Source: a virus (taxonomy: Duplodnaviria > Heunggongvirae > Uroviricota > Caudoviricetes). From it: a stretch of DNA of 64,000 nt. The number at the start of each line of letters is the position of its first letter. Positions within the stretch are counted from its first letter, which is position 1. The position numbers and the translations under genes are program-made. Positions 4,886 through 57,653 of the stretch are shown here, in pieces. The stretch is taken from positions 1-64,000 of the IMG/VR virus record IMGVR_UViG_3300020718_000011. One strand, written 5' to 3'. The notes under the pieces are model-generated. The model did not search any database. It was not told the DNA's origin and was given only the letters and a program-made list of their open reading frames with translations.

Positions 4886-4940
4886 TCTTTAACATTTAGT
4901 ATTTTTTTTGTCAAAGACTTTTTATTATATTTGTATGTTT
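4886..4940 (+). promoter_or_regulatory. class-A phage promoter (TCTTTAACA...TATATTTG)
   Basis: ttctttaacatttagtattttttttgtcaaagactttttattatatttgtatg; -7 box TATATTTG = Bacteroidota TAnnTTTG; about 15 nt before ATG 4955. Confidence 0.6.
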
Positions 4941-7384: not shown

Positions 7385-7993
7385 AAGTAAGTATTCCTGT
7401 AAATTTTATTGGCATACTGGGAGAGGATGGTAGATGGCTAAGAACAGAAGGCTATGGAAGGATTTGGGTTGATGATATAACAAAAGGGGCTATTAAGAAC
7501 CCTGTCCATATAAGAACCTTACAAAGAAAACTGTAAAGGGGTATGAAAGAAAATACCTATCCATATTCAGAAGGAGTAAATCCCCAAGTAGTTAGGATAA
7601 AAGAAGTAATAGTTGAAATAATAGAACCTAGATTCACACTCACTGATTGGTTGGATTTTTTAGAAGAAGTAAGAAATGGAGAATTCTAATTTAAGGCATT
7701 CATGTAAAGAGTGTCCATGGACTAATGATTCTAAGAATAATAGAACTATGATAGAATCTATTAATAGATGGTGTGAAAATGGGGGTAGAAAGAATACTGA
7801 GCATAGGTGTCATATGATTAGTACAAACATATGGAATACAACAACACCTGAAAATATTTGTATTGGATCATTAAATAATACATCACATTAAGAAAGTGAA
7901 GGATAATGAAAGTGGTTTCTATAAAATAGATTATTATTTAGGATTACTTTCTAACACCACCATTTAGTAAATAAGAATAAAAACACAACCTTT

Positions 7994-8644
7994 ATGATTC
8001 GCATTGGTATTACAGCCGGAATTGGCGCAGGAAAAACAACAGTATGTCAGGAATTTGAAAAAGTGATGAAAATTCCTGTGTACTATTCAGATCATTGGGC
8101 CAAGTGGCTGATGGTGAATGATCCACAGGTTAAACAAGACATCATCAATCTCCTTGGTGCTGACTCCTATCAACCCGATGGTCTTTTAAATCGTAAACAT
8201 ATTGGAGATCTAATATTTAATAATCTGGAGCTGGAAAAGAAGGTTCAGATAATATTAAAGGAGCCATTCAAAAAGCATTTAGACAATTGGTGTAAAGAAC
8301 AGGAAGAGAATATGAGTGATTGCCATTATGCCCTTATTGAATCTGCAATTTTCTACGAAACAAATACATCTAACCAAGTTGATCTTATGGTTGGTGTGGA
8401 TGCCCCATTGAATATGAGGATTGCTAGAGCCATGAAAAGGGATATGGTAACCGAAGCAGAAGTAATGCGTCGTATTAAACTCCAAAAACATGATGAGAAT
8501 ATGAAGTATTGCGACTTTATCATCCATAATAGCAATAAGGAGGAGATGGTAAAGCAAACAAGGGGTCTTCATATTACACTAATTAAAATAGCATATCTTG
8601 CATTAGGTATTAGCGTTAATTGCGGAGGAGTTTCTATTCGATAA
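7994..8644 (+). CDS. dephospho-CoA kinase-like P-loop kinase
   Basis: N-terminal IGITAGIGAGKTTV Walker A at the CoaE position, plus CoaE-like downstream pattern (DxD region, RD.V..E). Confidence 0.55.
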   Translation: MIRIGITAGIGAGKTTVCQEFEKVMKIPVYYSDHWAKWLMVNDPQVKQDIINLLGADSYQPDGLLNRKHIGDLIFNNLELEKKVQIILKEPFKKHLDNWCKEQEENMSDCHYALIESAIFYETNTSNQVDLMVGVDAPLNMRIARAMKRDMVTEAEVMRRIKLQKHDENMKYCDFIIHNSNKEEMVKQTRGLHITLIKIAYLALGISVNCGGVSIR

Positions 8645-8655
8645 GAATAATTTTT

Positions 8656-9255
8656 CTAGTTAATCCTATTACTCTTTTTAATATTATCAATTTTCCATAA
8701 TGGTTGAAAATTACTATAATGATTTAATTTAATAAGATCCTCTTCATTTAAAGCCGAACTAATAGGTATTATATGATCATATTCCCATTCACCATAATTA
8801 TTCCATGACATCCCATCCACGAATTTATTCTCTATCCATATTTTAAATTCTTTATACGAACAACCCAAGATTCTATATGTTTTTGATGTTTTTGTATATC
8901 CTTGATTTTTAATAGCATTTCTTATAAGATTTCTAATGTTACTACTCATTTTAAAAATAGGATCAATATTTCGTTTTTCGTTCACATAATTGTTTCTCTT
9001 TTTTCTAATTTTTGTTAGCTCTATTTCAGATTTTTTAATTGAACTTTTATCTTTAATTTTTACTTTTTCTCTATAATAATTTTTTGCATATTCGTTTAGT
9101 TTTTTTCTGTTATTTTTACTATATTGATTAGAATAATTTTTCCTTCTCCCTAACTCTTCGGGGTCCTTATGAGTTTCTAAATATAATTTAGTTCTATTAG
9201 AGATAGTTTCCTTGTTCTTTTTATAATATTCCTTATAATATTCTTTCCTATCCAT
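8656..9255 (-). CDS. HNH homing endonuclease
   Basis: C-terminal ILGCSY..W..DHIIPISSA...NHYSNFQPLW..DN..KSN His-Me finger motifs; Lys/Tyr-rich YYKEYYKKNKE N-terminal repeats. Confidence 0.8.
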   Translation of the reverse strand: MDRKEYYKEYYKKNKETISNRTKLYLETHKDPEELGRRKNYSNQYSKNNRKKLNEYAKNYYREKVKIKDKSSIKKSEIELTKIRKKRNNYVNEKRNIDPIFKMSSNIRNLIRNAIKNQGYTKTSKTYRILGCSYKEFKIWIENKFVDGMSWNNYGEWEYDHIIPISSALNEEDLIKLNHYSNFQPLWKIDNIKKSNRIN

Positions 9256-9291: not shown

Positions 9292-9346
9292 ATCTTTAAC
9301 ATTTAGTATTTTTTTATTCAAAAACAATTTATTACTTTTGTCTTAT
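9292..9346 (+). promoter_or_regulatory. class-A phage promoter
   Basis: atctttaacatttagtatttttttattcaaaaacaatttattacttttgtcttata; -7 box TACTTTTG; drives 9359. Confidence 0.6.
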
Positions 9347-9358
9347 AAATTTTAATCA

Positions 9359-9868
9359 ATGAGTGAGATTATAAAAAACTTAAAGAAAGGTTCCTTACTG
9401 ATAGCAGAACCCGATATGATTGATCCTGTCTTTTCCCAATCGGTTATATTAATTTGTAACCATGACGAGGATGGAACATTGGGATTGATTCTTAATCAGG
9501 TGTTTCCTCAAACGATGGAAGCTATGACTGGTATGACAATCCATTCAGGTTTTCCTGTTAATGTTGGAGGCCCAATGACAGAGGGTGGCGGAATAATGCT
9601 CCATCATGATAACTCCCTCTATGGTGGTGATGAAATAGCCAATGGAATTTATATTGGAACGAAGGATTCCCTCAGAGCATTAGAGGGATTTATATCACAC
9701 CAGGATGCCAACAAGAACAAGGCAAAAATATACGTGGGATATGCCGGTTGGGGTAAGGGCTCTTTGGAGTTAGAAATCCTTGACGGCAATTGGGCGGTAA
9801 AAGAAAGTACCGTAGACATAGTTTTTAATTCAAATGCAGATACGCTCTGGACAACATTATCCAAATGA
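9359..9868 (+). CDS. YqgE/AlgH (UPF0301) family protein
   Basis: GSLLIAEP.M.DP.F..SVILIC.H...G..GLILN...GGP.....I.LH....GYAGWG.G.LE.EIL.G.W matches YqgE/AlgH across its length. Confidence 0.6.
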   Translation: MSEIIKNLKKGSLLIAEPDMIDPVFSQSVILICNHDEDGTLGLILNQVFPQTMEAMTGMTIHSGFPVNVGGPMTEGGGIMLHHDNSLYGGDEIANGIYIGTKDSLRALEGFISHQDANKNKAKIYVGYAGWGKGSLELEILDGNWAVKESTVDIVFNSNADTLWTTLSK

Positions 9869-10344
9869 CTATAGACAAATTCTTCGAAACCTTAGACAAA
9901 TTCTACACAAAAGTAGGACATACTCCTTGTTGTATAAAATTCTATGCACAACAGAGTACCTTCAGCTTTGAGGTTCATGACAGCACACAAACTTGTTATA
10001 CTGATGAATCCTTAATCTATGAATCTCAGGTTTATTGGTGGAGATCACCAAAGGATATGGACAAGATTATTAAGAATATCAGGTCTTTCTGTAACGACTT
10101 TAAAGAGAAAGCAAAGAAATGGCCAGTTTGGGTTGGAGCATTACCAGATAATGCTCCAGATGGGCCAGTACATTATAATCCATTACCTACCAAAAGGGCT
10201 GAAGTTTATACCGGAGAGAATGCAATTCCCTTCTTCTATACGGAAAAGGCTTGCCAAAACTGGTGTGATAATCATACCTACCAGGGCGAATGGCTATGGG
10301 AAGGAAAAGATCATAGACACAAAAAACCGAAGGTAAAAAAATGA
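9865..10344 (+). CDS. hypothetical protein
   Basis: 159 aa, Cys/Trp-rich with basic C-terminus; ATGA overlap upstream. Confidence 0.45.
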   Translation: MTIDKFFETLDKFYTKVGHTPCCIKFYAQQSTFSFEVHDSTQTCYTDESLIYESQVYWWRSPKDMDKIIKNIRSFCNDFKEKAKKWPVWVGALPDNAPDGPVHYNPLPTKRAEVYTGENAIPFFYTEKACQNWCDNHTYQGEWLWEGKDHRHKKPKVKK

Positions 10345-10970
10345 TGTGGAACGAACAAGAAGCTGATGTTTACCTAGAAAAGGTATTAACAAATCTCGAA
10401 AGAATTAAACCATTTGAGGTAACAGTTCTTACTGGAGCCAATGGTTCTGGTAAATCATTAGTTCGTAAGGTCCTACCACAAAGGATGGCAGAGGAATTAA
10501 ATATACCAAAGGAAAGGGTTATAGGATCTACCTCGATGGAAAGAAGAATGGGAACACCATTCCTAAGTGATAGCCCATGGCAGCCAACCTCTATGGAAAC
10601 ATGGAATCAGATACGCCAAATCTTAAATCAACTGGATCGTTATATTGTTATAGATGAACCGGAAATTGGTACTGACGAGGATGTCCAAATGGCAATCATA
10701 GGTAAAATAAATGATGCGGTAAAGGAAGTTTATGACAAAGGGGATTTTAAAGGTTGCCTTATCATTACCCATAGCAAATTATTTGTTCGCCTTATCAGAC
10801 ATCACCAATTTATAAACCTTAATGGTTTAAGTGAGGATGAATGGCTAGATCGGTTACCAGTAAGAGCAGATCTGGAAGAATTAAAACATAATACTCACGA
10901 ATTAAAACATAATACTCACGAATTATTTCTGGCGGTAGAACGTCGAATTAAAGCTAATAAAGATAAGTAA
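10341..10970 (+). CDS. P-loop ATPase (ABC/AAA-like)
   Basis: Walker A LTGANGSGKS, Walker B YIVIDEPEIGTDED, H-loop IITHS; C-terminal in-frame ELKHNTH tandem duplication. Confidence 0.55.
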   Translation: MMWNEQEADVYLEKVLTNLERIKPFEVTVLTGANGSGKSLVRKVLPQRMAEELNIPKERVIGSTSMERRMGTPFLSDSPWQPTSMETWNQIRQILNQLDRYIVIDEPEIGTDEDVQMAIIGKINDAVKEVYDKGDFKGCLIITHSKLFVRLIRHHQFINLNGLSEDEWLDRLPVRADLEELKHNTHELKHNTHELFLAVERRIKANKDK

Positions 10971-11530
10971 TGGACCAAGAAAATACACTTCATTTAGTAA
11001 AAATATTTGCCGATATTGCTCATGGCGAGCAAAAACGGAAGTATACAGGAGAAAGGTATATTGTTCATCCAGTTCGTGTAATGGAAATTTGCAAAACGGT
11101 TACGGATGATATTCCAACATTAGTTGGTGCATTATTACATGATGTGTTTGAAGATACTACTACAACCGAGGCTGAGGTAAGAAAATTTCTAAGGGAATTA
11201 ATGACAGAGGAAGAGACCGAAGAAGTAATATTGATCATCCACGAACTTACCGACGAATTCATCAAAGAAAAATACCCTCAGTGGAATAGGGAAAAAAGGA
11301 AAAAATTCGAGGCGGAAAGACTCGGAACGATTACTGCAAAATCCCAGACTATTAAATATGCGGATGTGTATGATAATACAGAGGACATCCTTGCCTATGA
11401 TCGCAAATTTTCCTTTACCTATGTTCCAGAGGCTATGGATATGATGACCCAAATGAAACGGGGCAATAAAACATTACGAAAGAAAGCGCTGGAAGGCATA
11501 ATGGTAGCACTTGAAAAACTAGATCTCTAA
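10970..11530 (+). CDS. HD-domain (p)ppGpp hydrolase-like protein (SpoT/Mesh1 type)
   Basis: AHGEQKRKYTGERYIVHPVRV ... ALLHDVFEDT matches the SpoT/RelA hydrolase HD motifs. Confidence 0.65.
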   Translation: MDQENTLHLVKIFADIAHGEQKRKYTGERYIVHPVRVMEICKTVTDDIPTLVGALLHDVFEDTTTTEAEVRKFLRELMTEEETEEVILIIHELTDEFIKEKYPQWNREKRKKFEAERLGTITAKSQTIKYADVYDNTEDILAYDRKFSFTYVPEAMDMMTQMKRGNKTLRKKALEGIMVALEKLDL

Positions 11531-11531
11531 T

Positions 11532-12281
11532 ATGGCAGAGGAATATAAAGTTATCTTATACTTACAACCCGGTAATGAATTGCTGGCCAAGAGGAATGAG
11601 ATTTCTTATGCCGAACTAACTGTACTTGGGTGGGAACATCTAACGCACGATATTCGTGGTGTTCTTTCTGGTCGTCTTGAATTAGTTACATCCAGTGGAA
11701 CATTAAAGAAAGATAGCCTATTGGAAATACATCCAAGGGATCTAAAATCTGGCCATATACGTAAGGTAGAAATAATACCAACAAAAATTACAAAGGAATG
11801 GAAATCTTGGGGATTATCCTCTACCTTTATTGAATTTGACCCAAATTTATTAATGCCATTTAATACTCAAAGACTTCAGACTTGCAAATGTTTATACGAA
11901 CACCATACGGGATTACCTCGTACTAAAAATTGTATGAAAAGATGCGAAGCCCAAATAAACGCAACTAAAGAAAGAATTATGTTACCGCTTGAAAATCTTT
12001 TGGAAAAAGAAGACCTCACAATAGAGGAATTGAAAAAAAGACTGGACCATATTGAGAATTTGGTCAAAGATTTTAATGGTAGTCCGCGTAGGTATTATCG
12101 TATGAAAACACCTCCATCTGATATGGAAGGTGTTATAAGGGAAGCAGCTACGGTTTTATTTCCTGATATGAAGGTTGATAATCCTGTAGTTGTAGAATGG
12201 ATAATGGAATTTTATCCTGTTGACAAAAAAATTGAAATTTGGCCAGACGGAAGTGCCTGGGTAAGAACAATATTAGTATAA
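11532..12281 (+). CDS. hypothetical protein
   Basis: 249-aa ORF starting 1 nt after the upstream stop. Confidence 0.5.
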   Translation: MAEEYKVILYLQPGNELLAKRNEISYAELTVLGWEHLTHDIRGVLSGRLELVTSSGTLKKDSLLEIHPRDLKSGHIRKVEIIPTKITKEWKSWGLSSTFIEFDPNLLMPFNTQRLQTCKCLYEHHTGLPRTKNCMKRCEAQINATKERIMLPLENLLEKEDLTIEELKKRLDHIENLVKDFNGSPRRYYRMKTPPSDMEGVIREAATVLFPDMKVDNPVVVEWIMEFYPVDKKIEIWPDGSAWVRTILV

Positions 12282-12330
12282 GAGTGTTTATTTTTAACAA
12301 TCATCAATTAACCAAAACAAGTTAACGCGT

Positions 12331-13188
12331 ATGAAACGATTAAAGTTAGGGCTATTCGCAGCAATGGCCATCGCGTCCTTAGCAGGATGTTCCGGAGTAT
12401 CACCAGGAGGTGATGAGGAAGCAGTATTAATAGAGAAACCATGGATCTGGGGGCATGGAGGTGTTGATGATGAGCCAGTCACTTCTGGTAATTCTTGGGT
12501 GGCACTATCAACAGACGCCGTCAAGTTTAAAATTACCCCTGCTAAGTACACCGAGGAATTTGATAACTTGATGACCTCGGACAATAACCCGGTAACCTTT
12601 TCGGTGTACATTACACTCCAGGTACAAAAAGGAAAAACTCCCATACTTTATAAAGGCTGGGGCGACAAATGGTATGAGAATAGCCTACAGGCTCAGGTGC
12701 GTACGATGGTAAGAGACAAAGCCAGCCCATTCAAAATGTTTGATCTCACAACAAAAAGGGAAATTTCATCTACAATTGAGCAGGATCTTACAAAAAACAT
12801 CAATTCCCTTATTACCAGTATAAAGGATAAGGATGGTAAATCACTACCCGTTACTCTTATTAACGTAGCCGTTGGTGCTATTACTCCGCCGAAAGAGGTG
12901 ATAGATGAAACGAGCAAGACCGCTGCGCAGAACCAGGCCAAGCTTACCCAGGATGCCAGAATTGCAGTGGAGCAATCCCGTAAGAAGGCCGACATCGAAA
13001 AGGCCAATGCGGATATAGCCTATATGCAAACGATGAACTTTACACCCGACCAGTATTTACGGTTGAGGGAACTGGAAATTCGTAAGGAGACAATTGAGCT
13101 TGCCAAAGACGGTAAAGCTCCTCTATCTCTTAATGTCATAATGGGACAGGGGCAGAATATTACACCGACCGTACAGGTAGGTAAATAA
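12331..13188 (+). CDS. SPFH/band-7 domain lipoprotein
   Basis: MKRLKLGLFAAMAIASLAGCSG lipoprotein signal; C-terminal TPPKEVIDETSKTAAQNQAKL..ARIAVEQS..ADIEKANADIA resembles the SPFH/prohibitin region; GC noticeably above genome background; strong terminator follows. Confidence 0.6.
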   Translation: MKRLKLGLFAAMAIASLAGCSGVSPGGDEEAVLIEKPWIWGHGGVDDEPVTSGNSWVALSTDAVKFKITPAKYTEEFDNLMTSDNNPVTFSVYITLQVQKGKTPILYKGWGDKWYENSLQAQVRTMVRDKASPFKMFDLTTKREISSTIEQDLTKNINSLITSIKDKDGKSLPVTLINVAVGAITPPKEVIDETSKTAAQNQAKLTQDARIAVEQSRKKADIEKANADIAYMQTMNFTPDQYLRLRELEIRKETIELAKDGKAPLSLNVIMGQGQNITPTVQVGK

Positions 13189-13208
13189 TCAATACTGATA
13201 TTACAATT

Positions 13209-13245
13209 AACCTCGGCCAGCTGTGAGTTGGCCGAGGTTTGTGGT
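13209..13245 (+). terminator. intrinsic terminator after SPFH lipoprotein gene
   Basis: aacctcggccag-ctgtgagt-tggccgaggttt: 11-bp GC-rich stem, 9-nt loop, then TTTGTGGTT. Confidence 0.7.
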
Positions 13246-13260
13246 TGAAAATATTTCCTT

Positions 13261-13479
13261 ATGTCTAGTCATACAGTACTATTCTTTATTTGTGCGTTCC
13301 TTGTTTGGTATTCAATAATTTATATCTCACTATATGCACTCTTTTATAAAACCTTCGATCTAAGAAAGTGGATTCCAGACAAATATCTCGTCTGGATATT
13401 ACTAGCAGTAGCCCTAATCATTGACTACTTCTTATTCCCGTACGCCATGCTACTCTTGCTCCTACTAAATTTAATCTAA
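13261..13479 (+). CDS. small membrane protein
   Basis: 72 aa, two hydrophobic helices. Confidence 0.35.
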   Translation: MSSHTVLFFICAFLVWYSIIYISLYALFYKTFDLRKWIPDKYLVWILLAVALIIDYFLFPYAMLLLLLLNLI

Positions 13480-13484
13480 CTAAT

Positions 13485-13784
13485 ATGCGTACCGAAGAAG
13501 AAATAAAGGTGAAGCTGATCTCTCTTAGAGAGGTTGCTCATGATATACAGAAGAGAAGCGATAAACTATTTAGGGAAATGAGTGAAGGTCTTGGTCATCT
13601 GCCAATGGAAAGATTAGAATCCATTAATGAAGAAATTGGCATGATGAGGAATAGAGCTTTTGAACTTTTGGCAAACGCACGAGCCATGAAATGGTGTCTT
13701 GGTGAAATTGACGATATTGATTTCGCGATGAATACCGCTGCTGGAATCATAGAAAACGCACAGGATGGCTTTGATACTTTATAA
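13485..13784 (+). CDS. hypothetical protein
   Basis: 99-aa ORF. Confidence 0.4.
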   Translation: MRTEEEIKVKLISLREVAHDIQKRSDKLFREMSEGLGHLPMERLESINEEIGMMRNRAFELLANARAMKWCLGEIDDIDFAMNTAAGIIENAQDGFDTL

Positions 13785-13785
13785 A

Positions 13786-13845
13786 TTCTTTAACACTTGG
13801 AATTTTTTTATTCAAGAACAATTTATTACATTTGTCTTATATAAA
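13786..13845 (+). promoter_or_regulatory. class-A phage promoter
   Basis: ttctttaacacttggaatttttttattcaagaacaatttattacatttgtcttatat; TACATTTG; drives 13851. Confidence 0.6.
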
Positions 13846-13850
13846 ATTAT

Positions 13851-14072
13851 ATGAAAGAGTCAATAGTTAATATACTTGGAAAGAACCATAAGCATACAAT
13901 AGGCTTCAAGGAAACCCAAGAAATTAGTGGACTCTATACATACAAGGGAGAGATTTATTGTATCCATGCTGGTGAGGATTTTCCATTTGAGAATGTTTCA
14001 GAAGCTGGTAAAAAGAAAATACATCAAGCCATTTTAGATGGTAAATATAAAATCGATAGGACTATACAATGA
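13851..14072 (+). CDS. hypothetical protein
   Basis: 73 aa directly downstream of canonical promoter 13786-13845. Confidence 0.45.
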   Translation: MKESIVNILGKNHKHTIGFKETQEISGLYTYKGEIYCIHAGEDFPFENVSEAGKKKIHQAILDGKYKIDRTIQ

Positions 14073-14608
14073 CACCGGAACAAAGGAAACATTATTTTAA
14101 GGGGGGCAAATTTATTGCTATCTATGGTCCTGTAAAGCTAGATATAGCTTGGGAGTCTAAAATGATGATCGGGAAGAAAATTGAGGTCTATCAGAATTGT
14201 TTAAATACTCCTATGGAGAATGGGCAATTCAGATTTAATTCACCTGCTATTTATGGATGGTTTCCAGAAGAGGATATTAAGGATTTGGAAATTATTGACG
14301 AATTTATAGATTTTCCAGAACCTACTACACAATATTGTTATAGGATGACTCTCACTGATCCAGTAGCCATATTCAAAAATTTTGGTAAAGGCAATTGGGG
14401 AAAGAAAGTAATTACTACCCGGGAATATAATACAGACCAGGATGATTACGTTCTAAATAAGTTACTGGATCCTATGCCTGATACCATTGAAAAAAGGATT
14501 TTAGATTTAACCGTACCCGAAAATGAATATCCGGCATGGGAAGAAATCTATCCTCCTAAAATTAAGTCGAATATTAAATTAGAAGATATAAATGAGCAAG
14601 CCAACTAA
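14069..14608 (+). CDS. hypothetical protein
   Basis: 179 aa; ATGA overlap upstream. Confidence 0.5.
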   Translation: MTPEQRKHYFKGGKFIAIYGPVKLDIAWESKMMIGKKIEVYQNCLNTPMENGQFRFNSPAIYGWFPEEDIKDLEIIDEFIDFPEPTTQYCYRMTLTDPVAIFKNFGKGNWGKKVITTREYNTDQDDYVLNKLLDPMPDTIEKRILDLTVPENEYPAWEEIYPPKIKSNIKLEDINEQAN

Positions 14609-15020
14609 ACAAGTTATAGTTTGGAATAATGGGCTAAGGAATAAGTCTGGAGGAAAAATACGTGCAGGTAAATTCGCTGCCCAAATAAGCCATGCGAGTA
14701 TGGCATTTATAACACGGGGTGGATATTTTACAAAGCCTACTATGGTTGATGGTGCTATCTTTATGAACCCCAATATGTCTAATCCTGCCGAGGCAGAGGA
14801 TTGGATGGAAAATTCATTTACGAAAGTAGTACTAAAGGTTAATTCCGACGAGGAGCTTTTGGAAATTTATAACAAGGCAAAGTCTGCAGGTTTAGAGGTA
14901 CATTTAATAACAGATGCAGGCCGAACAGAATTTAATGGCCCTACAAGAACATGTGTTGGAATAGGACCAAATTATTCCGAACTTGTAGATGCTATCACTG
15001 GACATTTAGAACTCATGTAA
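14592..15020 (+). CDS. pth2: peptidyl-tRNA hydrolase, PTH2 family
   Basis: GKFAAQISHASMA and TKVVLKVNSDEELLEIYNKAKSAGL..HLITDAGRTEF..PTRTCVGIGP match the PTH2 signatures (GKxAAQxxHA, DAGxT..LAIGP). Confidence 0.75.
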   Translation: MSKPTKQVIVWNNGLRNKSGGKIRAGKFAAQISHASMAFITRGGYFTKPTMVDGAIFMNPNMSNPAEAEDWMENSFTKVVLKVNSDEELLEIYNKAKSAGLEVHLITDAGRTEFNGPTRTCVGIGPNYSELVDAITGHLELM

Positions 15021-15394
15021 TGGAAGAAGAAATAAAAACACTACCGGAAGGAATTGAAGAGGTAATACCTGCAAAGGTTCAGCCTGAAGTAATAATAGAA
15101 CCTTTGCAAGCACCTCTAAAGTTTGTGGCAGAATATGAATTTGCCCTAGTGGAAGTTCCAAAAGGAACTATGAAGTATTTTGAAACTTCTAGGGTCAAGG
15201 ATGAATTGGCAGATTGGTTAGTGAAAAATGGGTATCCTGATACTGGAGATTTTTATAAAAATTTTCGTTGTCTTCGTGATGTTTTAGGATTTAAACATGT
15301 AATGACTCAACTAAGACATAAATCCAAGGACAACATACAAACCTATACCGCAGAAATAAAAGAAAACTTAAAAGTGGAAAAAGAAACAGACTAA
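15020..15394 (+). CDS. hypothetical protein
   Basis: Track ORF starts at 14951 inside pth2; the TAATG-coupled Met (MEEEIKTL) is the likely start. Confidence 0.45.
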   Translation: MEEEIKTLPEGIEEVIPAKVQPEVIIEPLQAPLKFVAEYEFALVEVPKGTMKYFETSRVKDELADWLVKNGYPDTGDFYKNFRCLRDVLGFKHVMTQLRHKSKDNIQTYTAEIKENLKVEKETD

Positions 15395-15406
15395 AAAATA
15401 CTAACT

Positions 15407-15751
15407 ATGGATAAGGAAAATATGCGGAAATATGCCAATGATGTTTTAGAACTTACAAAAGGTATATCTAGAAACAATGCCAGTAATGAGTTAAGGGCAT
15501 TGGATGATCTTTCCGGATTCGTCTTGGAATTAACCCAAGAGCCTTATAAGAAATTGGAAGCAATTACTGACGAGGATGCTATAAAGGCATCAGAAATTCT
15601 TGGTGGTGTTGGTCATATATCAAATGAAGCAAAAATACACCAATTGAAGGAATTACTATCTAAATATCATAATGGCCAAACTAATATTCCTGGGTATAAT
15701 TGGTATAAGTTATTTCAATTTTTGGAGAAGGAGCTTTATATAATCGACTAA
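15407..15751 (+). CDS. hypothetical protein
   Basis: 114-aa ORF. Confidence 0.45.
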   Translation: MDKENMRKYANDVLELTKGISRNNASNELRALDDLSGFVLELTQEPYKKLEAITDEDAIKASEILGGVGHISNEAKIHQLKELLSKYHNGQTNIPGYNWYKLFQFLEKELYIID

Positions 15752-15762
15752 AAATATTAACT

Positions 15763-16230
15763 ATGGGATGGTGGGGATTTGGAATAATGGAAGGTGATTC
15801 ACCTCTTGATATGGAAGCAATCATATTTGATACTCTTAAGATAGATCAGTATGATCAAGCACAGCAGGATAAAATTGGTCCTGCTCTGACAGAGCAGCAG
15901 GAAAAAATCTTCCATATGATAAAGAACCATAAGAAAATTATGGCCGAGACCAAATGTATTGGACATCAGGTTCTGGCTTATCTTATGATGAAGCATGGAT
16001 CTACAATGAAGCCAGAGGTAAAAGAGCTTCTTATTAAATCCATCCAAAAAGATGATTGGGCTAAAGGTGATGACAAGCGGAAGAAAAAAATTTCTAAATT
16101 ACTTACTGCAGTAGTTGGATATGAAAATACCCAAATAGAATTACCACAAAAGGGATTATTTGAGGTTTTGGGGGAACATCTCAAAAGTGGAAAGTCTGGA
16201 TTAATAAACGTGATTCCAAAAACAAATTAG
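15763..16230 (+). CDS. hypothetical protein
   Basis: 155-aa ORF. Confidence 0.45.
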   Translation: MGWWGFGIMEGDSPLDMEAIIFDTLKIDQYDQAQQDKIGPALTEQQEKIFHMIKNHKKIMAETKCIGHQVLAYLMMKHGSTMKPEVKELLIKSIQKDDWAKGDDKRKKKISKLLTAVVGYENTQIELPQKGLFEVLGEHLKSGKSGLINVIPKTN

Positions 16231-16259
16231 TTTTATTTTTAAACCAATAAATAGTAAAA

Positions 16260-16622
16260 ATGAAAATTCTAAAATTGGCTGCATTGACAGCTATAGCCGT
16301 AAATGGCTCGAACACAGCAATCCCTGAATGGGCAAAAGAAAGTATTTGGGATCTTACAACAGAAGGTTATATAGCCCCACGGGTTATTGCTGCTGTTTCG
16401 GTAGATCCCCCGGGATACGTAGTAACAGAAAAAGGGCAGAAGCTGGTATCTATGTTGGAGGCATGTTCTGACTATTTCGGGGTGCACCAGGATCTAAAAG
16501 AGGGTGCAGCAGAAGCATACTCCGCAGCCAAAGAGGATACAGGAAAAATTATTAACGAGGGAAAGAAGAAGTTTAACAGTATGTTGGATTTTCTGAAAAT
16601 TCCATTACATGAAGAAAAATGA
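16260..16622 (+). CDS. putative secreted protein
   Basis: N-terminal MKILKLAALTAIAVNGSNTA signal-like segment; TGA/ATG coupling to rtcB. Confidence 0.45.
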   Translation: MKILKLAALTAIAVNGSNTAIPEWAKESIWDLTTEGYIAPRVIAAVSVDPPGYVVTEKGQKLVSMLEACSDYFGVHQDLKEGAAEAYSAAKEDTGKIINEGKKKFNSMLDFLKIPLHEEK

Positions 16623-17836
16623 CAGAAAAACAAATTGCAGTAGATTATTTCTGCGAACCTGATAAGATTGATGAGAATGCTAAAGCCCAATTAGACCAGT
16701 ATAGTAAAATGCCGGGATTGGAGAAGCTTTGTGCTTTCCCTGACATCCACTTTTGTGACGAGAAAGCCATTCCAGTAGGTGTGGCTTTCTCTACTCGGGG
16801 TATATTCTATCCACTCGTAACCGGCAAAGATGTTGGGTGTGGTGTTGGCTATGCCCGAATAGGAAAAAAGTATTTACTAAAACCTTTTGATAAGAGCAAA
16901 CATTACAATGCTTTGGAACGGGCTCATCGTGATATGACCGACGAAGGATTGGGGGGAGGAAATCATTTTCTATCTTTGGAAGAGGATGACGAATATCTTT
17001 ATGTCATTTGCCATACTGGTACAAGGAATAGGGGTATAGCTCTTTACCAAGAAGGCTATCAAATGGTAAAAGAATACTCCAATGAAATTGGGGAGGAGGT
17101 TAAGTATGTTTCCTGGGAATGGATGAGAGAGAAACATCCAGAATACTTAATGAGCGTTTTGAGAATTCCGGATTATGCAACCAAGCGCAGGGCGGATTTC
17201 GTATTCAAAACAATAACCTTCCTTCAAAAGAATGGGTATCTGGAAAACACAAAGCCCATAGAAAAAGATTACTTGTCCCGAGATTATTGGATTAAATCAA
17301 TAATGGATGAATACCATCCTGATCTTGGTATACCAGGGAAGGAGTGGCTCCCAAAGACAAAAAGGACTCCAATTGAAATAAATGGGATACCTTATGAGTG
17401 GCATGATTCGATGCACAATCATTTAGAATTCAAAGAAGATGGATCAATAATACACAGGAAAGGAAGTACGGAAATAAATCCTGGCGATGAGGTAGCTATT
17501 CCCCTTTCGATGACCAGGGGAACATTGATAGTAAAGGTTCATCCGTTTCATGATATAACAGGAGCACTTAATTCTTGTTCTCATGGAGCAGGTAGAAAGC
17601 TATCACGATTTGATTCCATGAAACATTGGCGAACAGTACTGAAGGCTAAGGAAAGAAAAGCATATGAGGAAAGGTTTTCGGAGCTACTTGATAAGAGTGG
17701 GAAATTTCCTTCTGGATACCTCCAGGAATTTGACTACGCATACAAAGATTCGTCGGACATTCTGACGATGCAACCATATTTAAGAAAGGTAACTCAAACA
17801 ATACCTATTGTAACTATTAAATACACAGAAATCTAA
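16619..17836 (+). CDS. rtcB: RNA-splicing ligase RtcB
   Basis: GKDVGCGVGYA, GGGNHFLSLEED, ICHTGTRNRG, WHDSMHNH and SHGAGRKLSR line up with RtcB metal/GTP motifs (GvDIGCGm, GGGNHF, HSGSRG, HNhA, HGAGR); 405 aa. Confidence 0.75.
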   Translation: MTEKQIAVDYFCEPDKIDENAKAQLDQYSKMPGLEKLCAFPDIHFCDEKAIPVGVAFSTRGIFYPLVTGKDVGCGVGYARIGKKYLLKPFDKSKHYNALERAHRDMTDEGLGGGNHFLSLEEDDEYLYVICHTGTRNRGIALYQEGYQMVKEYSNEIGEEVKYVSWEWMREKHPEYLMSVLRIPDYATKRRADFVFKTITFLQKNGYLENTKPIEKDYLSRDYWIKSIMDEYHPDLGIPGKEWLPKTKRTPIEINGIPYEWHDSMHNHLEFKEDGSIIHRKGSTEINPGDEVAIPLSMTRGTLIVKVHPFHDITGALNSCSHGAGRKLSRFDSMKHWRTVLKAKERKAYEERFSELLDKSGKFPSGYLQEFDYAYKDSSDILTMQPYLRKVTQTIPIVTIKYTEI

Positions 17837-33995: not shown

Positions 33996-34559
33996 ATGGC
34001 AAAGACAACAAAAAACAGGAAGGCTCAAAAAGCCGAAGTAACAAAGGTTCAGTTTGACAAGGCACTTGGGGATTACAGCACTAATCTTCAAACCCTTACG
34101 GATATAACTTCCGCACGGGATGTCAAGATAAAGGCAATCATGGATGAGTATGCAGGACAGATTGGAAATCTCCAGTCAGTACAGGGTGCTCAATTTGAAA
34201 CCCTAAAGAACTTCTGCCTGCAGAACAAGGATACTCTCTTCTCCGAAAAGAAAAGGAGTATGAAAACCGCATTACTGATTCTTGGCCTACGAAAAGATAC
34301 ACCAAGTGTTGTCTTGAAAAGCGGAAAGAGGTGGGAAGATGTTATCAAGTTGATGAAGGAAAAACTTCCCGGTTTCATTCGTACCAAGGAGGAGCCCAAC
34401 AAAGATGAGATTTTGGCGAAGAGGTCAGAAATTGGCCTGCAGTTAAATGAATGCGGAATTACAATCAAGCAGGAGGAGAAATTCTTCATTACCCCAATAG
34501 GGAAAGAAGAAACTCCAATTGTAACATTGGCCCCGGAAGCGGTAGAGGAAGTAAAATAA
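33996..34559 (+). CDS. hypothetical coiled-coil protein
   Basis: 187 aa, basic N-terminus, helical-looking. Confidence 0.45.
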   Translation: MAKTTKNRKAQKAEVTKVQFDKALGDYSTNLQTLTDITSARDVKIKAIMDEYAGQIGNLQSVQGAQFETLKNFCLQNKDTLFSEKKRSMKTALLILGLRKDTPSVVLKSGKRWEDVIKLMKEKLPGFIRTKEEPNKDEILAKRSEIGLQLNECGITIKQEEKFFITPIGKEETPIVTLAPEAVEEVK

Positions 34560-43397: not shown

Positions 43398-43775
43398 ATG
43401 AGCGATCCAAAAAACAAAAGGTCCAGCATTGGTTACTCTAAAGCGGACGACAAAATTATCAAGGAGCACGTAGCTGCTAATCCTGGTAACAAACAGGCAG
43501 CATTCAAATCCGCTGCCGCTATAATTGCCCGGAAATGGACGTCGATAAGCGCCCATTACTATGCACAGTTAGTAAAAAGTAAGAAGAACAAACCAAATGC
43601 TACATCAATTCCCACCCTAACAACTACACACGAACCCCAGGTACGTGTTATCCGAAGGGCTAAAAAGGGATACCCCGAACAGGAGATTGACCTCGGTGAG
43701 GTAGCTCTTTCCCTAATAATCCCAAAACTCAGCCAAAAGGCCAAGGCATCGCTTATCCGTAAGCTCCTGGCCTAA
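43398..43775 (+). CDS. basic hypothetical protein
   Basis: 125 aa, Lys/Ala-rich; preceded by promoter 43322-43378. Confidence 0.45.
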   Translation: MSDPKNKRSSIGYSKADDKIIKEHVAANPGNKQAAFKSAAAIIARKWTSISAHYYAQLVKSKKNKPNATSIPTLTTTHEPQVRVIRRAKKGYPEQEIDLGEVALSLIIPKLSQKAKASLIRKLLA

Positions 43776-43863
43776 TTAGTACTGAGCCTCTAAATAATGG
43801 AGTTCCCTAAAAAGGCTCCATTATTTAGTGTAAATGTATATGGGTTTCATCATATATACTTAT

Positions 43864-47079: not shown

Positions 47080-47135
47080 TAATATACAAATGTAATGAAT
47101 TGTTTTGACATAAAAAAATACCAAAAGTTAAAGAT
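47080..47135 (-). promoter_or_regulatory. class-A phage promoter on minus strand
   Basis: Reverse complement reads ctttaacttttggtatttttttatgtcaaaacaattcattacatttgtatatta; drives 47075 and probably 46559. Confidence 0.55.
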
Positions 47136-48420: not shown

Positions 48421-48480
48421 CTTAACGTTTCATTAACAATACATATTTTTTTCGTCAGAACTTTTTATGTACTTTTGTGT
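48421..48480 (+). promoter_or_regulatory. class-A phage promoter (variant)
   Basis: ttcttaacgtttcattaacaatacatatttttttcgtcagaactttttatgtacttttgtgtatat; TACTTTTG box; drives 48509. Confidence 0.45.
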
Positions 48481-48508
48481 ATATTCTCACATTAAAAAAC
48501 ACAATCGT

Positions 48509-49366
48509 ATGGGTATCAATTTAAAAAAAGAGCTCGACCAAAGTAAGGAGCAGCAATTAGAACGTTCCGTTAATGAGAGGGATTCTGTCCAGGAGGTAAA
48601 ACTGCTATTGGCAGGAGAGGACCAGGAAGATAAAAGGATCCTTCGCAATCTCGGTAGCAATTCCACCGTAATGCAGCTGGAAAACTTCAAGGGTGATAAC
48701 ATTCAATGGGAGAACCTGGAAAAGGAATATGGCCAAGTCTTTACTATAGACCAAATTAAACAATTGGCAGTAGACTACAGACTCCGCTTTCTTAATTCCA
48801 ATCACTTTGTTGGCGATATGGATCGAGAGGTAACCGCCAAGATAAAAGAATTCTCTAAGGCTACTGGAGTAAAATTGGACGATTCCACCTTACGCTATAA
48901 TTTCTATATCCTTTCTGTACCCAGCAGTTTTTCATTGACTACTGTTCGGGCAACCCGCTTTGAAGAGTGGAAGGAAAGGAGAAGGTTAGCAGCACTTGAT
49001 CCAGTACTCTTCTATAAAATAGACGATACGCACTATCGCCTGATTCACCAATGGGGCAAAGAGTTCACTACCTGGAGAAGAATTCTCGGGTATCGCTGGA
49101 GAAATCATAATACTTACCGAACTACAAACTTCTTTTTCCTGGTTCCAACATTCTCATTATTGATGGCTTTGATATTCCCTGGTGCTATTTGGAATAACCC
49201 GATATTAACCCCGTTCTGGATTCTTTTGGCGTCTGCCTTTTCTGCCTGGGTATTGAATATCAAGGTAATTAAGGAAAATGGGCATTTTTCTGAAGGTACT
49301 ACTGAATATCACGAAAATTTCTTCACCCCAACAAATTGGAACAGCACAGAAAAGCTGGTAGGATAA
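48509..49366 (+). CDS. membrane protein
   Basis: Track start 48467 lies inside promoter-like DNA; Met MGINLKK chosen; C-terminal half has 2-3 TM helices. Confidence 0.45.
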   Translation: MGINLKKELDQSKEQQLERSVNERDSVQEVKLLLAGEDQEDKRILRNLGSNSTVMQLENFKGDNIQWENLEKEYGQVFTIDQIKQLAVDYRLRFLNSNHFVGDMDREVTAKIKEFSKATGVKLDDSTLRYNFYILSVPSSFSLTTVRATRFEEWKERRRLAALDPVLFYKIDDTHYRLIHQWGKEFTTWRRILGYRWRNHNTYRTTNFFFLVPTFSLLMALIFPGAIWNNPILTPFWILLASAFSAWVLNIKVIKENGHFSEGTTEYHENFFTPTNWNSTEKLVG

Positions 49367-51983: not shown

Positions 51984-52526
51984 ATGGAAAAGACAGCATC
52001 GGCCAACACGGCCACAGACACAAAAACAACCGGAGCACAGGGTGCAGAGGTTGTAGTAACAGAGCAGCCTGCTGCAAGCAGCGTTAGCATCGTTCCAACA
52101 GCGGTAGCCGTAGAGGTACCAAAAGTTCGCCTGTTCTGGCAGAAAGCGTGCGGATCTATGAAGGATTCTACCCTTACGCCAATTAAAGACGACGAAGTAT
52201 TTGTAAGGACCTCTCACCAGGTAGGCGTTATCCCTGCCGGCGCACCGGATGGCACTGCACCAGTTGCAGAGACCGTTTACAGCATGAAGCGCGGTAAAAG
52301 GATCTACTACACACCTTCTTCTTTCATTACCGATGCACAGCGTCTCGCTGCTGATACCGCGACTGACCTCAAGGTAAAAGAGAAAGAGGCAGCAGCCAAG
52401 GTAAAGGCTGATGAAAAAGCCAAGAAAGAGCAGGCGAAAAAGGATGCGGCAGCAGCCGGTCCAAAAGTAGTAGCTGGCCCAACAGTGGTAGCGGCTCCGG
52501 CAACAATTACCGAAAAATCTCTCTAA
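51984..52526 (+). CDS. Ala/Lys/Thr-rich protein, paralog A of a duplicated pair
   Basis: Core VPKVRLFWQKACGS..TLTPIKDDEVFVRT.H.VGVIPAGA..GTAPV..VYSMKRGKRIYYTPSSFITDAQR with AKVKADEKAKKEQAKKDAAAAGPKVVAG tail; GC and codon usage above background; own promoter and bidirectional terminator. Confidence 0.55.
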   Translation: MEKTASANTATDTKTTGAQGAEVVVTEQPAASSVSIVPTAVAVEVPKVRLFWQKACGSMKDSTLTPIKDDEVFVRTSHQVGVIPAGAPDGTAPVAETVYSMKRGKRIYYTPSSFITDAQRLAADTATDLKVKEKEAAAKVKADEKAKKEQAKKDAAAAGPKVVAGPTVVAAPATITEKSL

Positions 52527-56939: not shown

Positions 56940-57653
56940 ATGAGCAACAACAAACACAGTAAAGGACGCGGCGCAGCCGGTCACACAACAGGCAGCGAGC
57001 ACACTTCTGCTGAACACACTGACACTGCAATCGACACTGCAATCGACACTGCAGAACACACTGACACCGCAACGGAAGAAACCAAAACGGAAACTACCGA
57101 GGCCAGCGCAGAACACACCGACCCCGCAACAGAAACTGCAGAACACACAGAGCCAGCACCAGAAGTGAAAGTTACTGAAACACCTGCTGCTTCTACCCTG
57201 TCTATCGTGCCAACCGCAGTGGCCAAGGAAGTACCAAAAGTTCGTCTCTTCTGGCAGAAAGCGTGCGGATCAATAAAAGAAAGCACTCTCACCCCTATCA
57301 AGGATGATGAAGTATTCGTTCGCACTGCCCACACCGTAGGTGTCATCCCTGCAGGTGCAGCAGAAGGTACTGCACCTGTTATCGAAATCGTTTACAGCAT
57401 GAAGCGCGGTAAAAGGATCTACTACACACCTTCTTCTTTCATTACCGATGCACAGCGCGTTGCAGCCGACCTGGCCACTAATACGAAGAACGCAGAAAAG
57501 GAAACCGCAGCCAAAGTAAAGGCTGATGAAAAACTGAAAAAAGAGCAGGCGAAAAAGGACGCAGCCGCAGCCGGTCCTAAGGTAGTAGCGGGAGCAACAA
57601 TAGTTGCCGCACCAGCAGCAGCCACAGAAACCGCTACCGAAGAAGTAAAATAA
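56940..57653 (+). CDS. Ala/Lys/Thr-rich protein, paralog B
   Basis: Same conserved core and AKVKADEKLKKEQAKKDAAAAGPKVVAG tail as 51984-52526, plus N-terminal AEHTDTAIDTAIDTAEHTDTA repeats; tandem promoters upstream; terminator downstream. Confidence 0.55.
   Translation: MSNNKHSKGRGAAGHTTGSEHTSAEHTDTAIDTAIDTAEHTDTATEETKTETTEASAEHTDPATETAEHTEPAPEVKVTETPAASTLSIVPTAVAKEVPKVRLFWQKACGSIKESTLTPIKDDEVFVRTAHTVGVIPAGAAEGTAPVIEIVYSMKRGKRIYYTPSSFITDAQRVAADLATNTKNAEKETAAKVKADEKLKKEQAKKDAAAAGPKVVAGATIVAAPAAATETATEEVK

Follow-up and report, generated by a model that had tools for sequence, protein, structure and literature searches.

Lipid-anchored proteins of the SPFH/Band-7 superfamily are already annotated as a class in phages (phrog_200), with members in the Vi01-like phage Sajous1 (gp200; PMC10892097), Xanthomonas phage X1 (WEM34456), Stenotrophomonas phage Siara (gp060) and Tunturiibacter phage Tunturi_3 (gp133); they lie in the early or replication regions of lytic phages, often with a terminator after the gene. 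An SPFH protein has also been annotated in an Erwinia jumbo phage (PMC6034870), the SPFH gene of PhiSH19 adjoins a gene annotated as encoding a 'superinfection exclusion protein' (PMC3220722), orf75 of Burkholderia phage CSP3, an SPFH gene, was called a moron by its authors (PMC10269572), and an HflK/C-like protein of a Pasteurella multocida prophage was reported in outer-membrane vesicles (PMC9872710). Many viral Band-7 models are also found in BFVD, and our literature search found no paper demonstrating the function of a phage SPFH protein during infection. Here we analysed an SPFH/Band-7 lipoprotein gene at positions 12331-13188 of a 64,000-nucleotide stretch of viral DNA (Caudoviricetes; positions 1 to 64,000 of IMG/VR record IMGVR_UViG_3300020718_000011), hereafter the window. 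It is probably a long-resident and constrained accessory gene of large phages. New here are a clade of such genes in Bacteroidota phages, a covarying hairpin, a co-travelling gene for a small protein with two transmembrane (TM) segments, the relocation of this block, and the link to a chromosomal lipoprotein family of Bacteroidota.

The gene and the parts of its product are as follows.

12331-13188, plus strand: SPFH/Band-7 lipoprotein gene; open reading frame (ORF) from its first ATG, 285 residues; supported by Pfam, phrog_200, AlphaFold2 (AF2) and Foldseek
12331-12390, plus strand: signal peptide with the lipobox LAGC, read from the sequence; Cys20 codon at 12388-12390
12457-12978, plus strand: SPFH (Band_7) domain, residues 43-216; from Pfam and AF2
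12892-13107, plus strand: two long C-terminal helices, residues 188-234 and 239-259, from the AF2 secondary structure; equivalent to the CC1/CC2 wall helices of SPFH cages

The N-terminus of the protein, MKRLKLGLFAAMAIASLAGC, consists of a basic n-region (MKRLK), a hydrophobic core (LGLFAAMAIAS) and a canonical lipobox (LAGC, residues 17-20), which fits the pattern [LVI][ASTVI][GAS]C. Cys20 is kept in at least 90% of 64 aligned homologs, and a relaxed lipobox pattern was present in 102 of 120. Pfam Band_7 (PF01145) matched residues 43-216 at 66.4 bits (gathering score 23.6; E=4.2e-18), and the phrog_200 'lipoprotein' profile matched residues 1-275 (E=1.3e-24, profile positions 81-354 of 379); an NCBIfam scan (E<=10) gave two chance-level matches only, neither of them to HflK or HflC. 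The AF2 model, obtained with 64 homologs as input (mean predicted local distance difference test score 88.3), has an SPFH domain of alpha/beta type and, after it, the helices 188-234 and 239-259, the last ~25 residues being disordered. In Foldseek this model matched prohibitin, HflK/C, erlin, stomatin, flotillin and QmcA with probability 1.00 over 250-310 columns, the top match being the human prohibitin complex subunit 8rrh (E=1.3e-13); by sequence, the best PDB match was also a prohibitin (9urz_B, E=2.3e-5), with HflK at E=0.006. The membrane anchor is a variant form of that of the superfamily, in which the lipobox cysteine and an 8-residue tether replace the TM helix or hairpin. A sequence-only reading of this DNA had proposed both the lipoprotein signal and the SPFH identity, and both were borne out; it had also spoken of an SPFH-like C-terminal region, whereas the domain is central and the C-terminal third is formed by the two long helices. 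As judged from the sequence and the structural model, the gene thus encodes a predicted exported, lipid-anchored SPFH/Band-7 protein with the full cage-type architecture.

Two other identities were considered. A spanin, which would combine an N-terminal lipobox with a coiled coil, was ruled out, as the hydropathy scan showed no C-terminal TM segment and the fold is that of SPFH. A surface-exposed Bacteroidota lipoprotein was judged unlikely: the surface-export signal of that phylum consists of acidic residues at +2 to +5, and the acidic residues here are at +8 to +10, within the conserved first strand. Paired C-terminal cysteines in the X1, Siara and Tunturi_3 homologs, together with the lipobox found throughout the family, fit a periplasmic location.

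The gene is present in a single copy in the window (a tblastn search with the protein returned only itself). Its relatives form a small discrete SPFH subfamily set well apart from mainstream Band_7 proteins: of 1.84 billion representatives, 472 matched at E<=1e-3, and nearly all members retain the lipobox cysteine. The identical protein was found on 7 contigs, the longest of 473,921 bp, and related copies lie on the phage-like contigs L003 (89% identity), L090 (84%), L004 (70%), L005 (60%), P0007 (58%) and L006 (48%). Such contigs carry long co-directional runs of small ORFans, and PTH2, T4_Y16D and similar genes recur on them. An alignment-based scan of IMG/VR yielded 223 contigs with SPFH relatives; a scan of it with the single SPFH protein gave no confirmed relative, a megablast search of 10000-16000 against deposited phages gave no match, and a metagenome scan with the product of the upstream 249-residue gene (p249), aimed at relatives without the SPFH gene, gave nothing. 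Compared with L003, the SPFH protein is the locally best-conserved one, at 89% identity against 46-61% for its neighbours, while only a fraction of 0.49-0.62 of identical residues is encoded by identical codons, so that synonymous sites are near saturation between the lineages. High protein identity combined with near-saturated synonymous sites points to an old divergence under strong constraint.

The locus around the gene contains the following features.

9293-9340, plus strand: class-A promoter-like motif, TCTTTAAC-N8-ATTTTTTT ... TACTTTTG, the most likely start of the unit holding the SPFH gene; TAnnTTTG at 9333-9340
12282-12330, plus strand: 49-nucleotide intergenic gap 5' of the SPFH gene, without class-A motif, TAnnTTTG element or Shine-Dalgarno core
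13209-13250, plus strand: conserved hairpin and tail, GGTTTGTGGTTGAA; arms 13209-13221 and 13227-13239, loop TGTGA; probably a leaky intrinsic terminator
13261-13479, plus strand: ORF for a small membrane protein of 72 residues with two hydrophobic segments and a basic loop (2-TM protein); co-travels with the SPFH gene
13485-13784, plus strand: 99-residue gene (p99), the last before the next promoter motif; its L005 homolog directly follows that of p249
13787-13834, plus strand: next class-A promoter-like motif, TCTTTAAC ... TACATTTG; TAnnTTTG at 13827-13834

The local order of HD-protein gene, p249, SPFH gene, hairpin and 2-TM gene is kept in L003 and L090; p99 follows in L003, and L090 stops inside the 2-TM ORF. 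The 2-TM gene was not called in the public annotation of the identical locus (L001), and its product has no family match in Pfam, PHROGs or PADLOC. Homologs occupy the corresponding position in L003 (47-48% identity) and L090 (71% over the 38 residues available), and a 79-residue analog does so in L005; in phage X1 an 81-residue TM protein is encoded directly 5' of the SPFH gene. A second predicted lipoprotein gene was also observed directly or two genes 3' of the SPFH gene in L006 (10846-11337) and in phage X1 (L087, 4697-4990), the latter annotated as DUF4884.

The contigs L005 and L004 show the gene in other surroundings. In L005 the homologs of p249 (7879-8343) and p99 (8350-8631) are direct neighbours, and a block of class-A motif, SPFH gene, hairpin and 2-TM ORF lies ~1.4 kb beyond this pair; the difference from the window is a relocation rather than presence against absence, the arrangement of the window being the one shared with L003 and L090. 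In L004 the 70%-identical copy is found in a neighbourhood without any other gene of the window. The relocation in L005 and the context in L004 suggest that SPFH gene, hairpin and 2-TM gene form a cassette that relocates, with the hairpin and the 2-TM gene staying attached. Of the features expected of a moron, the gene of the window thus has a putative terminator of its own and an insertion site between genes that are adjacent in L005; an own promoter is absent here and present in L005. As a separate observation, the flanking genes are nearer to those of L090 (HD protein 84%, p249 77%) than to those of L003 (52% and 61%), yet the SPFH protein is nearer to that of L003. This discordance may reflect allele exchange between phage lineages; a recent exchange with the L003 lineage was weakly suggested by the fraction of identical codons (0.62, compared to 0.51-0.52 for the neighbours) and was not adopted.

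The hairpin at 13209-13239 has a GC-rich stem of 11-13 bp and a folding energy of about -26 to -28 kcal/mol (z=-5.85 compared to shuffles), which makes it the most stable of all 44-nt windows on both strands of the 64 kb. The T-tract of its tail is interrupted (TTTGTGGTTG; also given as UUUGUGGUUG), and similar tails of mixed T and G follow other strong hairpins of the window. The hairpin is kept after the stop codon in L090, L003 and L005, with the tail GGTTTGTrGTTGAA. RNAalifold found 11 pairs, 5 of the 11 with compensatory double changes, and the 'broken' cells of the alignment stem solely from an alignment shift in the row of the window. Covariation of this kind in genomes near synonymous saturation is good evidence for selection on the structure. 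A non-homologous terminator, a stem followed by T9 and then by a class-A motif, stands after the SPFH gene of L004, and hairpins are also found 3' of the gene in phages X1, Siara (there annotated as a terminator) and Tunturi_3; an Rfam search over 12000-14000 gave nothing meaningful, and the hairpin is covered by no family. Its stem and tail indicate that it is probably a leaky intrinsic terminator.

The full form of the class-A motif, TCTTTAAC-N8-ATTTTTTT...TTATTAyATTTGTmT, is ~50-60 nt long, ends in TAnnTTTG and lies upstream of about 11 genes. Good copies start on the plus strand at 4886, 9293, 13787, 21917, 31841, 43324, 51893, 56851, 59623 and 60045, and a single copy at 47112 is on the minus strand. 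TAnnTTTG, which we take to be the Bacteroidota -7 consensus, is enriched 5' of the genes of the window, and Shine-Dalgarno cores are not above chance (7.6%, compared to 11.7% in random sequence); this scarcity and this enrichment fit a Bacteroidota host. The motif would act as a promoter. It is much longer than a plain promoter and also occurs in the relatives L004 and L005; its length may mean that a regulator site or an UP-like element is included. The copies nearest to the SPFH gene start at 9293 and 13787, and the earlier statement that the gene lacks a class-A promoter is therefore correct. The unit from 9293 holds, in order, genes for an AlgH-like DUF179 protein, a 159-residue protein, a P-loop ATPase, an HD protein, p249 and the SPFH protein, followed by the hairpin; two genes (13261-13479 and 13485-13784) lie between the hairpin and the motif at 13787. 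The simplest reading makes the SPFH gene the sixth of this unit. The 'classic moron organisation' that had been claimed is not supported, as the gene is without an own promoter here, would be the sixth of the 9293 unit and occupies the same position in L003 and L090.

Relatives of the SPFH protein were also confirmed in cellular genomes (356 in total). The nearest non-phage ones are chromosomal lipoproteins of Bacteroidota (50-54% identity), and Bacteroidota copies at 46-54% identity sit among housekeeping genes, their neighbours including a dicarboxylate symporter, an M20 peptidase, an amino-acid permease, a protein sorted by the type IX secretion system, malate dehydrogenase, LigA, HtpG and MutS. 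Nitrospira copies (33-34% identity) lie in a conserved chromosomal neighbourhood. In a neighbour-joining tree the proteins of the window, L003, L004 and L005 form one clade, sister to a Bacteroidota group that also holds the phage-borne copies L006, L026 and L028; deeper branches lead to the Bacteroidales, Nitrospira and Campylobacterota groups. Both the housekeeping surroundings of the nearest non-phage relatives and the deeper branching of cellular groups make an origin in Bacteroidota cells plausible, and the comparison suggests that the family was most likely captured from Bacteroidota chromosomes long ago. The sequence-only reading had called the gene host-derived; a cellular source agrees with the 50-54% relatives, whereas a recent import is contradicted by the gene's own phage clade and the near-saturated synonymous sites. 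The host of the phage is itself probably a member of the Bacteroidota, to judge from the promoter motif, the lack of Shine-Dalgarno sites and the nearest cellular homologs.

Several further occurrences of the family were observed among cellular records. Bacteroidales genomes, isolates as well as metagenome-assembled genomes (MAGs) of Palleniella, Muribaculaceae, Dysgonomonas and Bacteroides (L037, L045-L052), carry 36-40%-identical SPFH lipoproteins within phage-like conserved runs of small same-strand ORFs, and copies 37-42% identical to the protein of the window are abundant on 50-100-kb IMG/VR contigs (L099-L171). This abundance indicates that the Bacteroidales copies are probably prophages, and that temperate Bacteroidales phages also carry the family. 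L028 (GenBank JBBACR010000001.1, 425,361 bp, a 'Candidatus Pacearchaeota archaeon' MAG) is the same as L095 (IMGVR_UViG_3300035208_004923) and so is filed both as archaeal and as viral; its phage-like local pattern (29 small co-directional ORFs in 12.8 kb) suggests a mis-binned megaphage. Other unlikely bin labels among the matches included Bifidobacterium breve, Clostridia and Peribacteria.

Taken together, these results lead us to favour as probable the reading that the gene is an accessory gene long resident in large phages and kept under constraint, which descends from an old Bacteroidota capture, travels in a mobile cassette and encodes a lipid-anchored envelope scaffold. Transcription from the class-A motif at 9293 would reach the SPFH gene as the sixth gene, and the hairpin would end most transcripts or stabilise their 3' end, its interrupted U-tract letting a fraction read through into the 2-TM and 99-residue genes; partial termination, as this interruption suggests, would yield more of the scaffold than of the 2-TM protein. 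After export by Sec and lipidation at Cys20, the 8-residue tether would keep the SPFH domain flat on the periplasm-facing leaflet, in a geometry matching that of the TM-anchored HflK/C, and the C-terminal helices would bring copies of the protein together in a homo-oligomeric ring or dome, by which a patch of the host envelope is fenced off. The likeliest clients would be the co-travelling 2-TM protein or a host membrane protein, and the likeliest benefit that the envelope of the infected cell stays intact and/or shut to competing phages. What the phage gains, be it envelope stabilisation or exclusion of competitors, is a guess guided by the location of the protein, the early-region context and the weak hint from the PhiSH19 annotation. 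A bolder and distinctly doubtful proposal is that the SPFH and 2-TM proteins form a minimal phage scaffold-client pair, a functional analogue of SPFH-NfeD, in which a cage in the periplasm, which may sit on the outer membrane's inner leaflet, walls off part of the Bacteroidota envelope and the hairpin sets the stoichiometry; such a cage could, for example, keep competing phages from entering or postpone the failure of the envelope over a long megaphage infection cycle. We know of no SPFH assembly on the inner leaflet of the outer membrane.

Five observations speak against the favoured reading or narrow it. A consensus terminator scan made no call at 13209-13239, where the U-tract is weak; the interruption of the T-tract is presumably why the scan missed the hairpin, and the claim that this is the best terminator of the window stands for the hairpin itself, which is the most stable and covaries, and not for the terminator call. 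The neighbour-joining tree carries no support values, which makes the direction and number of transfers tentative. The AF2 model is that of a monomer and is of low confidence over the last ~25 residues. The 2-TM neighbour is absent from L004, L026, L028, Siara and Tunturi_3, so a functional pairing with the SPFH protein is not general. Finally, no structural genes were identified in the window with PHROGs and Pfam (the three largest genes, the neighbours and the high-GC genes were mostly unmatched), and its phage nature is deduced from gene content.

The base composition of the gene offers a second way of viewing the locus. Against the 109 crude ORFs of the window as background, the SPFH gene has a GC content of 0.446 (mean 0.346, standard deviation 0.052; z=1.9, rank 5 of 109) and a third-position GC content (GC3) of 0.444 (mean 0.294, standard deviation 0.082; z=1.8, rank 7 of 109). 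Its codon usage is ordinary: per-codon synonymous divergence from the rest of the window ranks 54 of 89, and 7 of 27 among genes of at least 200 codons. The observation that its GC lies above that of surrounding genes was therefore correct, though the gene is not unique in this respect, and the codon-usage comparison did not follow it. One possible explanation is that high GC and the strong hairpin are the signature of high expression and not of foreignness, the hairpin serving mainly as a 3'-end stabiliser and the GC3 resulting from selection on codons or composition. A hairpin of <=-15 kcal/mol stands 3' of four genes, and each of these falls among the ten of highest GC3 (hypergeometric p=6e-5), namely the SPFH gene, 43398-43775, 51984-52526 and 56940-57653, the latter three directly 3' of class-A-like motifs, and raised total GC recurs across the family (z=2.1 in L003, 1.6 in L004, 2.1 in L005 and 0.7 in L006); this four-gene class means that an expression or composition signature explains the raised GC at least as well as a foreign origin does. 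On the other hand, GC3 and hairpin strength show no overall rank correlation (rho=-0.16, p=0.13), the GC3 excess is smaller in the SPFH genes of L003, L004, L005 and L006 (z 0.3-1.4), and the window allele stands out by its higher GC3 (0.444, compared to 0.36-0.37 in L003 and L090). We consider this explanation a serious possibility that falls somewhat short of probable; it is compatible with the reading of an anciently captured scaffold gene.

The other members of this class were looked at in their own right. The 125-residue gene at 43398-43775 (GC 0.46) lies between a class-A-like motif (43324) and a strong hairpin (43787-43830). The genes at 51984-52526 and 56940-57653 are paralogs (GC ~0.51) with products rich in Ala, Thr, Glu and Lys and a shared core, VPKVRLFWQKACGS...YSMKRGKRIYYTPSSFITDAQR...AAKVKADEK.KKEQAKKDAAAAGPKVVAG; both have a class-A-like motif 5' and strong terminators 3' (52541 and 57707), and neither has a match in Pfam or PHROGs. 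To the eye, and as an impression only, their Lys/Ala-rich tails resemble the DNA-binding tails of histone H1-like proteins.

It is rather unlikely that the lipoprotein, with or without the 2-TM protein, is a dedicated superinfection-exclusion factor that stops the adsorption or DNA entry of competing phages. Phage proteins of this kind are known, T5 Llp and T4 Imm/Sp blocking adsorption or DNA entry, and several features of the locus would suit such a role: the predicted envelope location, the place of the gene in a run of small ORFans that follows a promoter motif of host type and looks like an early region, and a small membrane protein adjoining the SPFH gene both here and in X1. The neighbour of the PhiSH19 SPFH gene points the same way but is an annotation only, and no similarity to a known exclusion or defence family was found (PADLOC for the SPFH, p249 and 2-TM proteins; PHROGs and Pfam for the 2-TM protein). 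The housekeeping company of the chromosomal homologs in Bacteroidota and Nitrospira speaks for a broader role in the envelope.

Similarly, an inner-membrane lipoprotein that cages FtsH in the manner of HflK/C, and so alters the degradation of phage or host membrane proteins, was considered and appears improbable. The model is structurally similar over its full length to HflK/C as found in FtsH complexes, a homolog in phage PaBG is annotated as a 'putative FtsH protease regulator', and anchoring by lipid in the inner membrane's outer leaflet would reproduce the topology of HflK/C. The HflK and HflC models of NCBIfam were nevertheless unmatched up to E=10, there is one gene and not a pair of paralogs, the anchor is a lipobox and not a TM segment, and prohibitin, not HflK (E=0.006), is the best PDB match by sequence. 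In addition, the +2 residue of the homologs in proteobacterial phages is Ser or Thr and never Asp. By the Lol rule of E. coli a +2 residue other than Asp predicts sorting to the outer membrane, which weakens the FtsH model.

Last, a recently acquired host-derived moron, self-contained, compositionally foreign and expressed independently of the phage programme, is very unlikely: the raised GC and GC3, the strong putative terminator 3', the Bacteroidota chromosomal homologs, and in L005 the adjacency of p249 and p99 and the SPFH gene's own promoter motif would all suit it, but the gene of the window has no promoter of its own, keeps its position in L003 and L090 despite near-saturated synonymous divergence, is 54% identical to its closest cellular relative and 58% to 100% identical to phage relatives, combines ordinary codon usage with a raised GC common to its relatives, and encodes a protein found identically on a 474-kb contig, a size that would make a temperate lifestyle, the usual setting of morons, unlikely, so that 'recent' acquisition is largely refuted.

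The wider surroundings of the locus yielded some further observations. A cluster of host-like genes for RNA, translation and nucleotide functions (9359-17836) surrounds it, with an AlgH-like DUF179 protein (9359-9868), an HD phosphohydrolase (10970-11530), the peptidyl-tRNA hydrolase PTH2 (14592-15020) and an RtcB RNA ligase (16619-17836); outside the cluster, a CoaE/PRK-like kinase (7994-8644) and a Mu Gam-like protein (33996-34559) are encoded, and a tRNA scan found no tRNA. Just 5' of the motif at 9293, the minus-strand gene at 8656-9255 (GC 0.24) interrupts a plus-strand block, and the C-terminus of its product (…YDHIIPISSALNEEDLIKLNHYSNFQPLWKIDNIKKSN) resembles an HNH homing endonuclease; a recent mobile insertion is more credible for this gene than for the SPFH gene. 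The 299-residue gene at 48467-49366 (GC3 0.44) has a weak, sub-threshold Pfam match to fatty-acid desaturase (E=0.002), which if real would make it a second accessory gene related to membrane lipids.

The recently solved SPFH cages (HflK/C, prohibitin, erlin, stomatin, flotillin and QmcA) are all anchored by protein segments, whereas the present subfamily, predicted to be lipid-anchored and to face the periplasm, is common to Bacteroidota chromosomes and hundreds of phage genomes. Its conservation in large phages (89% where neighbours are at ~50%) suggests that the protein matters to the phage, and cultivable carriers, such as the Xanthomonas, Stenotrophomonas and Vi01-like phages, open a direct test of a viral membrane scaffold. 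For annotation, the case advises caution: raised GC and a strong terminator are by themselves no sign of a recent host-derived moron.

When set beside E. coli HflK/HflC-FtsH, the protein of the window shares the SPFH domain, the CC1/CC2 helices and a predicted place close to the membrane on its periplasmic side (Foldseek matches at E=1e-11 to 1e-10, with 290-300 columns aligned); two paralogs make up the TM-anchored hetero-oligomer HflK/C, whereas the window encodes a single, lipid-anchored protein with 14-17% identity to them. Structurally, the prohibitin PHB1/PHB2, erlin, stomatin and flotillin cages come closest and have the same domain order, but they are eukaryotic, anchored by TM segments or hairpins, and 12-19% identical. 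With the SPFH-NfeD operons (QmcA-YbbJ, PDB 8z5g) the locus shares an SPFH gene adjoining a gene for a small membrane protein. NfeD is absent from the Pfam lists within 10 kb either side, the 72-residue neighbour has no Pfam match, NfeD included, and 72 residues with two TM segments would leave little room for the soluble domain of NfeD; unlike those operons, the pairing of SPFH and 2-TM genes is lineage-restricted. Classical morons, which are promoter-gene-terminator units of temperate phages, resemble the locus in the putative terminator directly 3', the raised GC and the site between genes that are adjacent in a relative. Unlike them, the gene of the window has no own promoter, is anciently resident and strongly conserved, and lies on what seems to be a very large, probably lytic phage.

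A close likeness is to the chromosomal SPFH lipoproteins of Bacteroidota, found also in Nitrospira and Campylobacterota, which share the lipobox and the post-cysteine motif and show full-length identity of 50-54%; these differ in being stand-alone genes in housekeeping company with variable neighbourhoods, and the conserved 2-TM partner was not seen at L091, the only cellular locus checked. The phrog_200 lipoproteins named at the outset resemble the protein of the window in their N-terminal lipobox and similar length, with 25-37% identity over 76-92% of the length. They differ from it in being less than 40% identical and in having Proteobacteria or Acidobacteriota, not Bacteroidota, as hosts, and the covarying hairpin and the 2-TM gene downstream of it are a feature that sets the clade of the window apart from them.

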